This document shows positions 60,237 through 64,000 of a DNA stretch of 64,000 bases, in pieces. Each line of letters begins with the position of its first letter. Position 1 is the stretch's first letter. A program made the position numbers and the translations under genes. This DNA is from a virus, in the IMG/VR virus record IMGVR_UViG_3300036791_001907, positions 1-64,000 of that record, one strand, 5' to 3'. The notes beneath the pieces were generated by a model. That model was not told the DNA's origin and did not search any database. It worked only from the letters and a program-made list of their open reading frames with translations.

Positions 60237-60785
60237 ATGGTCGGGAAAGCCTACGGACCACGGGGCATGATGAAGTCCCGCGAGGATGTGACCCAGGGAT
60301 GGGCCCAGGCCATCAAGGCCAACGTCCGGCCGCCTGAAGGCGGCGTGCTCACGGACGCGGCGGCCAGCGACTACGCCGATCAGTTCTGGAGGTCGCTGGA
60401 GCAGCGCCATGTGCCGATCAAGGAGATCATGGCGGTACCCGGCAGGGACGCTGTGGCATGGGTGCTGCTCGCCGCAGCTCCGGCTACAACCATTGAGATC
60501 GACGCGATGGCGATCGACGAACCCCCGGAATTCGAGGAGGACCATGTGAAGACGGCGCAGGGCAAACCCATCGATCTGGGGACGCGCGATGTGACGGTAT
60601 CGGTATACGCGCTCCTCAATGCCACGATCCGCGTCAAGGGCGATGACGGCGAGTATCATCCCGTGCCTGTCCAGGCCGAGCTCGAGATCCATCACGGGAG
60701 TCTGCGCCAGCTGGTCCAGAAGGCCAACACGAACATGTCGAAGAAGAGCAGCGACGGCGCGGTGACCGTTCGCATCCGCGGGTAA
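60237..60785 (+). CDS. Hypothetical protein
   Basis: SD GGGAGG before ATG 60237. Confidence 0.55.
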   Translation: MVGKAYGPRGMMKSREDVTQGWAQAIKANVRPPEGGVLTDAAASDYADQFWRSLEQRHVPIKEIMAVPGRDAVAWVLLAAAPATTIEIDAMAIDEPPEFEEDHVKTAQGKPIDLGTRDVTVSVYALLNATIRVKGDDGEYHPVPVQAELEIHHGSLRQLVQKANTNMSKKSSDGAVTVRIRG

Positions 60786-60799
60786 CCCAATGAAGGAGG

Positions 60800-61057
60800 A
60801 TGATGGGCATGTGGACGTCTTATCTTCAGCTCCGCGGCGCCGAGGCCCGTGCGGCCGGACGGTCCCGCGACGATCACCAGCTCGACAGCCAGGACGCGGC
60901 GCTGTGGCTGGAGGGCTACGATGCCATGAACCAGAGGATCACGTCGCTCCTCGGCGAGATCCGCAGGGGTTGGCTGGTCCCGCACGTCGTCTTCGTCCAG
61001 CGAGAGCGACCCAGCGTTCCCGTGGTGATCACTCCGATCCGAGGATTGTCCGAATGA
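60800..61057 (+). CDS. Small hypothetical protein
   Basis: SD AAGGAGG; the start may be 60803 or 60809. Confidence 0.5.
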   Translation: MMGMWTSYLQLRGAEARAAGRSRDDHQLDSQDAALWLEGYDAMNQRITSLLGEIRRGWLVPHVVFVQRERPSVPVVITPIRGLSE

Positions 61058-61278
61058 ACAAGCCCAAGTATCACCGCGGCCAGAAGTTCCGGATGGGCAG
61101 CGACGGCTCGCGGTTCGAGATCGAAAACGTGCGCGTGCTGGCACCCGATGATCGGATCGGCTACGAGCTGCGCGGCCTGGAGGAACCATTCCAGGGAATG
61201 GTTCTTCACCGCTTCGAGGCCGAGCTGGAACGCGACTTCGAGCTGGAGCCAGAACCACCAAAGGAGGACCCAGCGTAA
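61054..61278 (+). CDS. Small SH3-like hypothetical protein
   Basis: SD GAGGA; PKYHRGQKF start. Confidence 0.55.
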   Translation: MNKPKYHRGQKFRMGSDGSRFEIENVRVLAPDDRIGYELRGLEEPFQGMVLHRFEAELERDFELEPEPPKEDPA

Positions 61279-61289
61279 CGATGCAGCGA

Positions 61290-61318
61290 ACCGACGGCCA
61301 GCGGTATATCTGGCGGTG
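61290..61318 (+). repeat. Array leader hairpin, copy 1 (ACCGACGGCCAGCGGTATATCTGGCGGTG)
   Basis: 29-nt repeat also found at 62220 and 62529. Confidence 0.9.
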
Positions 61319-61320
61319 AT

Positions 61321-61688
61321 GGCAGCGATGGGTATGTTGCGGCGGGCCGAGCTACGTCGTGGTAGGTCCGGCAGCTGCGGTTGGGTTCGTCATGGCGAGC
61401 CGAGCATGGGTATGCTCCGTCATGGCAGCCGAGGCATGGTTTGTTGGACCATGGCGAGATGAGCTTAGCCGAGCTTCGGCGAGGCAGCCGGGGTGTGGTT
61501 CGGCGGGCTGTGCGGCGCCACGCCAGGGTTGGGCAGCTCAGATCAGGTGTGGACAGCTCTGGCCGGCAGCGCCAGGTCATGGCAGCCGAGGATAGACCTG
61601 GCCAGCCACGCGGAGCCGTCGTGAGCCGGGGCAGCATTGGCTGGTCACGTCATGACACGGCCAGTCGAGCACGGCCATGTTATGTCAG
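61321..61688 (+). ncRNA. Pentamer-periodic guide-RNA array 1 (7 units; GNY-NN modules)
   Basis: GGCAG anchors at 61321, 61370, 61424, 61483, 61532, 61581, 61630 and GTCAG at 61684. Spacings are 49, 54, 59, 49, 49, 49, 54, all 9+5n. Confidence 0.8.
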
Positions 61689-61706
61689 CATTGAAAGGAG
61701 GTGAAT

Positions 61707-61928
61707 GTGTCAAAGATAGTTCATTTGATCTATCATCGCGTCCCCAACGATCGGATCTCAGACATGAGCGAGGTCGTGGGGGTCGTGACCACGGGCTGGC
61801 AGGATGCCGATGCGATCGTGGATCAGCTCAACGCGCGGGACCCATCCGGATTCGGCTGGCAGCGCGACTACTGGAAAAAGGAGGTTGATGTCATCACCAA
61901 GGATGATGTTCCGCGTCGCACTCCATGA
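61707..61928 (+). CDS. Small hypothetical protein between arrays
   Basis: Perfect SD AAGGAGGT; GTG 61707. Confidence 0.6.
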   Translation: MSKIVHLIYHRVPNDRISDMSEVVGVVTTGWQDADAIVDQLNARDPSGFGWQRDYWKKEVDVITKDDVPRRTP

Positions 61929-61940
61929 CAGGAGACAGCG

Positions 61941-62207
61941 ATGATCTGTCCGGAATGCGGGCATTCCAACCCGGTGATCGCCGCCGAGTGTCTCAAGTGC
62001 CGGTGCCGGTTCCTGGAACACGGTTGTTTTTCCGAGCAGTATCAGCACCCGCTCGTCGGCAAGCGAATCCAGGTCAATACCAGGACCGGCTGCATGGCCG
62101 AAGGGGTCGTGGAGCGGGTGGTGTCTTCACGTTTCGGCCTGCTCGCCTGCCTGGAAGGCGAAAACGGCAGGGCCTGGGCCGTGAACCAATGCACGCCGGT
62201 CACCTGA
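61941..62207 (+). CDS. Zinc-ribbon protein between arrays
   Basis: SD AGGAG; CPECG...CLKC. Confidence 0.65.
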   Translation: MICPECGHSNPVIAAECLKCRCRFLEHGCFSEQYQHPLVGKRIQVNTRTGCMAEGVVERVVSSRFGLLACLEGENGRAWAVNQCTPVT

Positions 62208-62219
62208 CCGGCGTCATGG

Positions 62220-62248
62220 ACCGATGGCCGGCGGTATATCCGGCGGTG
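62220..62248 (+). repeat. Array leader hairpin, copy 2 (ACCGATGGCCGGCGGTATATCCGGCGGTG)
   Basis: Compensatory stem change GCCAG/CTGGC to GCCGG/CCGGC. Confidence 0.9.
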
Positions 62249-62250
62249 GT

Positions 62251-62522
62251 GGCTAGCCCTGGCGACATCAGCAATGGTCGCGCGAGCACTGCCGTGGCGC
62301 GTTCAGGCAGTACAGGCGGGGTGATGCGGGCAACGGCAGGGCCGGGTCCGTCCGGCGATGTCATGCCACGGTATGGCAGCTCAGGTGAGTTCAGATCGGC
62401 CATGCGCGGGCTGGCTGCGGTGACCAGAGGTGGGTCGAGCCGTGGCGAGGCAGCGTAGCCATGGAAGGGTCGGGTCGGTTGAGCTGCGGCGAGCCCAGCT
62501 GACGCAGGGCTGGCCGCGGCAG
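62251..62522 (+). ncRNA. Pentamer-periodic guide-RNA array 2 (4 units)
   Basis: Anchors GGCTAG 62251 and GGCAG 62306, 62375, 62449, 62518; spacings 55 (1-nt insertion), 69, 74, 69. Confidence 0.8.
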
Positions 62523-62528
62523 CAAAGA

Positions 62529-62557
62529 ACCGATGGCCAGCGGTATATCTGGCGGTG
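62529..62557 (+). repeat. Array leader hairpin, copy 3 (ACCGATGGCCAGCGGTATATCTGGCGGTG)
   Basis: Third copy of the 29-nt repeat. Confidence 0.9.
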
Positions 62558-62569
62558 ACGGGAAGCATC

Positions 62570-62628
62570 GGCAGCGACGGAATGGCAGGGCAAGTTGCGT
62601 CTTGTTCCGGCCAGCCAAGTCATGGCTG
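62570..62628 (+). ncRNA. Pentamer-periodic guide-RNA array 3 (single unit matching the adjacent Cas7-like gene)
   Basis: GGCAG 62570 to GGCTG 62624 (54 nt); the NN string matches 62854-62883 at 9 of 10 dinucleotides. Confidence 0.8.
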
Positions 62629-62754
62629 CGTCGTATTGCCGATCACTACGAGGACGATCCGCCTGCGCGGTGGATCGGAACACGTACTGAACACCCTACA
62701 GTTGCAGGGCCGCGGGACGCGCGGCCCGTCTCACTGGCGACAAAGGATGATCCA

Positions 62755-63666
62755 ATGCCAGCCAAGAAAGGTCCGGCCAAGGGGACAGTCCCGGTCAACA
62801 TCCCCCAGCCACAGATCCTCGACTTCGGGATCGGACTCATCGGCGTGACGCCGACGATCTCGAACGCATTCCCGCAGAAGATCCGTGAGAAGCTCGTGGC
62901 TGATCACATGCACATGCCTGAGGCCCTCATCCCCCACGAGGCCAAGGACCCGTGCGCCAACTTCAGCGCGTGCATCCACTACGTCAAGTCCAAGGACGGT
63001 GGGGTCAACTTCGCCATGCCCGGCTCCTCGTTCAAGGGGGCCATGGTCGCGGCGTGCCGGATGACCAACAAGAAGTTGGACATGGCCAGTGCCAAGCAGT
63101 TCTTCCAGGTGATCCCGTTCCGGGTCCAGATGTACGGCGACGAGCCGATCATGTGCGAGCACCGGGTCCGCAACGACAACGGCGGCGTCGACATCCGGCA
63201 CCGGGCCATGTACTGCCGTTGGTCGGTGATCCTGCCGATCCGCTACCACGCGGGGTCGATCTCCAAGGAGTCCCTGATCTACCTGGCGGAGCTGGCCGGC
63301 TTCGGCTGTGGCATCGGTGACTGGCGGATCGCGGCGCCCAAGAGCCCCAACGGGCAGATGGGCGCCTTCCGCGTGGCCCGCGAGGGCGAGATCGTCGGCC
63401 CGGCGTACTCCAAGTGGTGCGCCAAGAACCCGTTCGACTGGGACGAGTTCGAGCAGTACGGCATCGTCCCGCCCGCGCGGGTCGAGTACTACCGCAAGGC
63501 CGCCGAGATGGTTCGCGGCCTGCCGCCCGAGCAGCGGGGCACGCCCAAGAAGGGCAAGAGCCGGAAGGCTGTGCCCACCGCTGCGGCCGCCGCGGCGATC
63601 ATCAACGGCGTCCAGCCCGTCGACGGCCTTGAGCCGCCCGATGACGGCTACGTGCCGCAGCAGTAA
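62755..63666 (+). CDS. Stand-alone Cas7/RAMP-like RNA-binding protein (candidate guide-RNA effector, Vipr-like)
   Basis: SD AAAGGA before ATG 62755. RAMP hallmarks: beta1 IGLIGVTP, MPGSSFKGAM (cf. IPGSSLKGA), thumb region HRVR...DIRHRAMY..W and Gly-rich loop AGFGCGIGDWR...GQMGAFRV. Confidence 0.75.
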   Translation: MPAKKGPAKGTVPVNIPQPQILDFGIGLIGVTPTISNAFPQKIREKLVADHMHMPEALIPHEAKDPCANFSACIHYVKSKDGGVNFAMPGSSFKGAMVAACRMTNKKLDMASAKQFFQVIPFRVQMYGDEPIMCEHRVRNDNGGVDIRHRAMYCRWSVILPIRYHAGSISKESLIYLAELAGFGCGIGDWRIAAPKSPNGQMGAFRVAREGEIVGPAYSKWCAKNPFDWDEFEQYGIVPPARVEYYRKAAEMVRGLPPEQRGTPKKGKSRKAVPTAAAAAAIINGVQPVDGLEPPDDGYVPQQ

Positions 63667-63741
63667 CCACTTCGTGCAGGAGGACGACCGGGGGCCAGGA
63701 TGGCCCCATCTTTCCCGCAACCCTAGCAGCAAGGATCGAAC

Positions 63742-64000
63742 ATGCCATCGGGTGTCAAGAAGAAGTCATCAGCGCCGGCGCCGGCGCTCAAGTACGAGTT
63801 CCGGGCCTGCTTCCGGAGCCCGCTCGATCCCAACGTCGTCGCGGCGCGGCTCGAATGGCTCAGAACCAGACTGAGCCGGGACCCGGAGGGTCAGGACGTC
63901 CTGGAAGACGCCCGGCCCGTCGGCTCGCCGTTGCATGATCACTTCGACTGGAATGACTACGAGGCCGGCGAGAAGCATCGGCTCGGCCAGGCCACGGATC
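63742..64000 (+). CDS. Partner protein of the Cas7-like gene (3'-truncated by the window; absent from the ORF track)
   Basis: SD AAGGA; open to the window end: MPSGVKKK...DVLEDARPVGSPLHDHFDWNDYEAGEKHRLGQA. Confidence 0.7.
   Translation, partial: MPSGVKKKSSAPAPALKYEFRACFRSPLDPNVVAARLEWLRTRLSRDPEGQDVLEDARPVGSPLHDHFDWNDYEAGEKHRLGQATD

Follow-up and report, generated by a model that had tools for sequence, protein, structure and literature searches.

VIPR (Viral Interference Programmable Repeat) is a CRISPR-like, RNA-guided silencer described in 2026 preprints (bioRxiv 10.64898/2026.04.26.720920, 10.64898/2026.04.26.720927). The published systems combine a minimal RAMP protein, Vipr, with an accessory gene, vap, and guide RNAs (vrRNAs) made of 9-16 GGY-NN pentamers, whose NN pairs read dsDNA with a one-nucleotide skip per unit, on either strand and with no PAM; in coding sequence, the skipped bases are mostly wobble positions (10.64898/2026.04.26.720920). 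EMSA, repression of GFP and cryo-EM demonstrated this 1-nt skip rule (10.64898/2026.04.26.720920; 10.64898/2026.04.26.720927), and in the SUSP1 cryo-EM structure a thumb Arg and a G-loop hold the fixed triplet (10.64898/2026.04.26.720927). Staggered arrays and the alternative repeat consensus forms NNNGG, YNNNG and NNNNG are also known (10.64898/2026.04.26.720920, fig. S18). Guides directed at early codons of vipr itself have been published for the SUSP1 family, with a lower self- than non-self match proposed as a way of avoiding autoimmunity; serine and six-fold codons are not discussed there (10.64898/2026.10.15.759431).

A VIPR locus in a soil phage genome

The genome analyzed here is a single 161,481-bp contig (65% G+C) from a soil metagenome, and its first 64 kb (64,000 nucleotides) constitute the stretch we call the window. 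Tail sheath and baseplate wedge genes are present in the 161-kb genome, indicating that the locus is phage-borne. Judged by its gene and repeat content, the locus is a VIPR system comprising a Vipr RAMP protein, a candidate accessory gene and staggered vrRNA arrays. The original prediction, made from the letters of the window, had proposed a gapped target read two bases on and one off in register with codons, with the consequences that wobble mutations give no escape and that the RNA base-pairs to the template strand of dsDNA. All three proposals agree with the published system, respectively with its mechanism, its wobble-aligned skip rule and its targeting of dsDNA. The read-two, skip-one code is thus real, yet it was already published in 2026; the locus is an independent natural example that broadens the reach of the published code to an actinophage-like, diverged clade, here with 63 guides built on a GNY scaffold. 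The window contains pentamer tracts only and no CRISPR repeat-spacer array, no Cas families were found among the neighboring ORFs scanned, scanning the window for Rfam families and tRNAs returned nothing, and 60700-64000 had no blastn match among cultured phage records. An RNA that binds a TRAP-like ring protein (11 repeats, period 5) was also considered as an explanation of the pentamer tracts and was dropped in light of the homology to Vipr and of the published work on VIPR.

The vipr gene (62755..63666, + strand) encodes a RAMP effector of 303 aa (P0001) assigned to phrog_4652. A profile built from this protein and nine homologs matches PDB entry 36pp_D, 'SUSP1 Vipr protein', with an E-value of 1.6e-5. 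In the alignment of the two proteins, SUSP1 residues R138, C173, D177, W178 and R179 correspond to R150, C185, D189, W190 and R191 here, such that the Arg of the thumb and the C-G-x-G-D-W-R G-loop are both kept. When an AF2 model (pLDDT 67) was searched with Foldseek, the top matches were almost all Csm3/Cas7 proteins, at probabilities up to 1.00 and E-values of ~2e-3. On the strength of this homology and of the modeled structure, the 303-aa protein is Vipr, with a predicted Cas7/Csm3-like fold, which gives the 'Cas7-like gene' of the original prediction its proper name.

The nine Vipr homologs, which share 44-60% identity with the protein, were found in metagenomes; neither the protein nor the alignment, used as profile queries, retrieved a relative from viral contigs or genome contigs, and a search for shorter or fragmentary Vipr homologs found none. 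A second soil run (X2), the only other DNA run listed, contains a vipr relative with ~91% nucleotide identity over 62956-63537, on a contig that ends before the target site discussed below; no RNA run with the locus is listed. Comparisons at the DNA level were made with six relatives (L001, L002, L004, L010, L011 and L012), leaving out homologs P0004 and P0010. More distant Vipr homologs, at 27-30% identity over residues 26-207, occur in the Mycobacterium phages Donkeykong, Saal and others and in the Gordonia phages Pipp and UmaThurman, where they are annotated as hypothetical proteins; these actinophages may offer tractable models. Directly 3' of vipr, every relative has a gene of 174-193 aa. 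Its counterpart here, the candidate vap gene, starts at 63742 and runs through the end of the window (63742..64000, + strand) to genome position 64275, encoding 177 aa (phrog_15946, no Pfam). Two further small genes of the VIPR locus lie between the array blocks: a 75-aa gene (61701-61928) and an 88-aa gene (61941-62207) with a weak zinc-ribbon match (E 0.006) that is below the Pfam cut-off.

Guide units were called with a five-phase Viterbi parse of the G-every-5th-base periodicity, which yielded 63 units in the genome, mostly of 8-15 pentamers each (median 11). Runs with this periodicity are almost confined to 61331-61684, 62330-62624 and 64331-67837. Within the window we delineate two staggered vrRNA array blocks, both on the + strand, of seven units (block 1, 61331..61686) and four units (block 2, 62251..62520), and the main array, 3.5 kb in length, follows the candidate vap gene at genome 64331-67837. 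The composition of the pentamers (n=707) defines the scaffold: G fills position 1 in 93% and C or T position 3 in 81%; position 2 is degenerate (G 42%, C 36%, T 17%), giving GNY, and base use at positions 4-5 is nearly uniform. The units end in four nucleotides that shift the 5-nt phase, namely GGCA (36 cases), GGCC (9) or CGCC (3), and they abut without spacers as in the staggered-array subtype (10.64898/2026.04.26.720920, fig. S18). An outlying cluster of three guide units is located at genome 85359-85537, 17 kb from the main VIPR locus.

The resemblance to the published VIPR systems (10.64898/2026.04.26.720920) thus covers a minimal RAMP protein, encoded by a phage, that has the thumb Arg and the DWR of the G-loop, a small gene (the candidate vap) directly downstream, pentamers that pair a fixed triplet with a free NN, a repeat number in the 9-16 range, head-to-tail units that overlap or abut and, here deduced from sequence alone, 1-nt-skip target reading aligned to wobble positions. 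The locus differs in that its scaffold is G-N-Y rather than GGY, its Vipr has 303 aa versus ~200 aa in SUSP1, and a single genome carries 63 guides; unlike the published type II vrRNAs, each of which has a 3' pseudoknot tail, a structured motif lies 5' of each block. With the Cas7 filaments of Class 1 CRISPR systems (Csm3, Cas7) it shares a RAMP fold and, as expected from the published mechanism, one protomer per fixed-length segment of RNA and a thumb that breaks the guide-target duplex periodically, but no CRISPR repeats were seen here, nor cas1/cas2 or other cas genes among the neighboring ORFs scanned, and the period is 5 nt with two bases read versus 6 nt with five read.

Match of guide 12 to its own vipr gene

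Guide 12 (62570..62627, + strand) is a solo vrRNA unit that directly precedes vipr, which is encoded on the same strand. The unit parses as GGCA, ten G-N-Y-N-N pentamers (62574-62623; gcgAC ggaAT ggcAG ggcAA gttGC gtcTT gttCC ggcCA gccAA gtcAT) and GGCT, so its NN string is AC AT AG AA GC TT CC CA AA AT. It is preceded by a leader motif of ~32 nt (62529..62560, + strand; ACCGAYGG-CCRGC-GGTATAT-CYGGYGG-TGA) followed by GACGGGAAGCATC. The motif is found 5' of every array block, with further copies at 61290-61321 and 62220-62251 in the window and at 64284, 64679, 67133 and others in the genome, and among the six copies listed its arms covary (CCAGC/CTGG, CCGGC/CCGG, TCGGC/CCGG). GACGGGAAGCATC is common to the guide 12 leader and the block at genome 67146. 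Indeed, window 62520-62578 is almost identical to genome 67125-67182 up to and including GACGGGAAGCATC-GGCA-GCGAC, and immediately beyond this first pentamer the similarity is lost, a pattern which suggests that block leaders were duplicated and that the guide content behind them was then replaced. Since gcgAC is part of the stretch shared with the 67146 leader duplicate, the first NN (AC) of guide 12 may be inherited and not selected.

Downstream of guide 12 there are ~85 nt of non-periodic sequence; in L002, the corresponding guide extends to the terminator. Between guide 12 and vipr, the minimum free energy fold contains a G+C-rich hairpin, GGGCCGCG-GGA-CGCGGCCC (62707..62725, + strand). 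At the equivalent position in L002 and L011, a hairpin is followed by a T-run. A promoter and terminator scan of 61200-62900 detected no promoter-like site near guide 12 and no terminator-like site, the hairpin at 62707..62725 escaping the consensus terminator scan because it has no T-run.

The target of guide 12 is at 62854..62883 on the + strand, which reads ACG ATC TCG AAC GCA TTC CCG CAG AAG ATC and encodes T-I-S-N-A-F-P-Q-K-I, codons 34-43 of vipr, in frame with the ORF 62755-63666. As originally predicted, the NN string spells codon positions 1-2 of the guide's own effector gene: nine of ten dinucleotides and 18/20 bases (90%) match, with every wobble base skipped, and the sole mismatch pairs AG of the guide with TC of the Ser36 codon TCG. 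The match depends on the register and the skip length. When four dinucleotide registers were compared, only the two bases after each G gave it, and among skip lengths of 0-3 only a skip of 1 was an outlier, the 20/20 obtained at skip 3 being guide 12 on itself.

To what extent could this arise by chance? When the order of the dinucleotides was shuffled and both strands of the 161,481-bp genome were searched, 3 of 30,000 shuffles reached at least 18/20; none of 3,000 base shuffles reached 18/20 (whole genome, both strands), and in a reversed-genome decoy the best identity over all 63 guides was 0.80. Equally good gapped matches from shuffled units, the outcome that the original prediction had named as one that would refute it, are thus rare. 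The family-wise chance over 63 guides is ~6e-3, before counting the location in the effector gene, which accounts for 912 of the 322,962 positions scanned, and the wobble alignment. Among the other 62 guides there is no significant self-match in the genome. The early chance estimate of 2e-5 for this unit in the window was therefore about tenfold too optimistic, but the conclusion drawn from it, that the match is not due to chance, stands. Because the match, besides being wobble-aligned, falls in the effector gene next to the guide and there on the most conserved N-terminal motif of the family, chance is rejected as the main explanation of the guide 12 self-match on these sequence statistics. 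In the first preprint, guides compared with their own contigs gave no self-match of at least 80% NN (10.64898/2026.04.26.720920). A self-match at 90%, one serine codon-family swap from the phage's own gene, is an unreported detail.

The serine codon and the possible roles of guide 12

Several properties of the target site bear on what guide 12 might do. The motif at 62854-62883 is the most conserved N-terminal motif in the Vipr family of the window: P-x-I-S-N-A-F-P-Q-K is nearly invariant, as are the individual residues P33, I35, S36, N37, F39 and K42 in 10 homologs. Ser36 is encoded by TCG in L002, L011 and the phage of the window and by AGC in L001, L004, L010 and L012 (4/7). Serine is the sole residue of the site for which a synonymous change at positions 1-2 exists; it therefore offers the only protein-neutral escape from a guide that skips wobble bases. 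Among the relatives, guide 12 matches the vipr of L010 best (17/20, with the eight central dinucleotides at 16/16), followed by L001 and L004 (16/20 each) and L002 and L011 (15/20 each). None of 200 whole-locus shuffles reached the observed value for L010, nor did any of 200 for L001 or for L004. The flanking dinucleotides AC (Thr34) and AT (Ile43) fit the own gene of the phage only and match in none of the six relatives compared at the DNA level.

The reading we favor, held at about even confidence, is that guide 12 is directed against the vipr alleles of rival phages and that the phage's own copy is spared by the serine swap. By analogy with the published mechanism, each Vipr protomer would bind one pentamer, hold its G-N-Y triplet and present the NN pair, such that the filament would read dsDNA two bases on and one off. 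Read by this code, guide 12 would specify the conserved I-S-N-A-F-P-Q-K motif of the vipr family and, presumably transcribed and bound by Vipr, would be aimed at sibling or rival phages whose vipr carries an AGY serine, whereas the phage's own TCG copy, given a sufficient effect of the single mismatch, would be spared or bound weakly. AGC alleles in four of the seven members and the perfect match to the central dinucleotides of L010 speak for this reading, as do the conserved target motif, the non-chance match, the 91%-identical vipr relative in another soil run and the cross-targeting of this phage by guides of two relatives that is described in the last section. The single mismatch is moreover a synonymous swap between serine codon families; for a mismatch placed at random, the probability of hitting the serine and reading AG is only ~1/10 x 1/15, or ~1/150. 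A further point in favor is that TCG of the window looks derived from AGC, since the three basal lineages in a maximum-likelihood protein tree have AGC, with the proviso that the midpoint root of this tree lies on a long branch. The vipr-directed guides of the SUSP1 family (10.64898/2026.10.15.759431) provide a precedent: like them, guide 12 matches early vipr codons and is wobble-aligned. Those guides are mostly on phages that lack vipr, whereas the carrier here is VIPR-positive; the difference between self and non-self is here one serine codon-family swap, and the phage's own gene is the closest known match (90%).

Against rival alleles as the target stands that no natural 20/20 target was found in viral and metagenome contigs. 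The exact gapped pattern, with 20 specified bases, which the original prediction had put forward for searching phage and metagenome databases, does not occur in the viral contigs; its four occurrences in metagenome contigs are in DNA of 41-44% GC with stop codons around and none is in vipr, and they were rejected as targets and read as chance. Serine codon-family switches also occur at two of the four other conserved serine columns of the family, so that the switch is not exceptional by itself, and serine switching is for this reason given little weight as a special signal. The first NN (AC) lies in the stretch duplicated with the 67146 leader. Finally, the phage's own gene is the best match known and only its Thr34 and Ile43 fit the flanks, an observation that also counts in favor of a different role.

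That role would be autoregulation, in which a complex of Vipr and vrRNA12 binds codons 34-43 of its own vipr despite one unpaired dinucleotide and acts as a roadblock, so that vipr and the accessory gene, and perhaps also the array downstream, come under negative feedback whose strength the mismatch tunes. From the sequence evidence we consider this less likely than the first reading, but a serious rival to it. Partially matching CRISPR guides are used for self-regulation, and the own gene, the best match anywhere, exceeds at 90% NN the 80% threshold that the preprints use to call targets. Autoregulation would also fit the position of the solo guide, immediately 5' of vipr and in the same orientation. 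In SUSP1, R-loop formation proceeds along the vrRNA from its 3' end toward its 5' end; the part of guide 12 where such an R-loop would start, the seven dinucleotides nearest the 3' end, matches the own gene perfectly, and self-binding may therefore still occur even if rival alleles are the intended target. On the other hand, nothing would require a mismatch that serves tuning to be the alternative synonymous serine codon (~1/150), and the systems surveyed in the first preprint had no self-match of at least 80% (10.64898/2026.04.26.720920). L002 and L011 likewise keep a solo guide in front of vipr, with its leader and terminator, yet this guide matches no vipr (best identity <0.7), and a conserved autoregulatory guide was rejected for this reason.

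Least probable, and in our judgment improbable, is that guide 12 has no present function and is a coincidence or a decaying, unexpressed guide left from a past conflict or from duplication of the 67146 block: a self-match in only one of 63 guides, the ~0.6% family-wise chance of 18/20, the ~85 nt of non-periodic sequence after the guide (unlike L002) and the lack of a promoter-like site in the scan of 61200-62900 are in keeping with it, but location in the effector gene (912/322,962), wobble alignment, the conserved motif and the synonymous type of the mismatch are jointly far below chance, and guide 12 keeps an intact leader, its GGCA start and its G-N-Y scaffold.

Discrimination against rival alleles and autoregulation can be joined in a broader proposal, which we advance tentatively and with less than even confidence: a VIPR-positive phage may keep a guide against its own effector family, at the conserved N-terminal motif, with the serine TCN/AGY swap setting either the discrimination between self and rival or the strength of self-repression. 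The swap is one of few synonymous loopholes in a code that ignores wobble changes. If this is general, VIPR escape and self-immunity would be fought out at the six-fold-degenerate codons (Ser, Leu, Arg), and guides directed at self would constitute a regulatory or kin-discrimination layer absent from the preprints. The TCG/AGC contrast bears on self/non-self discrimination by VIPR, on the cost of one internal dinucleotide mismatch and on VIPR self-regulation.

Guides and targets among related phages

Matches between guides of the relatives and genes of other members were also found. Guides at L001:8805 and L002:8699, which share the NN run TA CG GA AT CA AT AC, both match genome positions 100206-100253 in wobble alignment, at 24/28 and 18/22, respectively, with 0/200 shuffles each. 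This site (L014:3206-3253, motif NYRELHITKREAKEI) is in an ORF at L014:2531-3520 that encodes 329 aa and has no Pfam or PHROG match. There, the phage of the window has Leu (CTC) where the L001 and L002 guides read AT. A guide of L002 (7922-7985) matches L011:3084-3119, vipr codons 28-40, at 20/24 (0/200 shuffles) versus 15/24 at the equal offset of its own vipr; this match is not wobble-aligned and may be due to chance in view of how many tests were made. The convergence of L001 and L002, the L002 guide to L011 and the 91% vipr relative support an arms race among these phages.

One guide of the window other than guide 12 has a possible counterpart in a relative. The guide at 61634-61686 matches L002:4900-4929, the start of a small gene (MTPERIII...), at 16/20 with 0/200 shuffles, a weak lead in which the seven units at the 3' end fit best.
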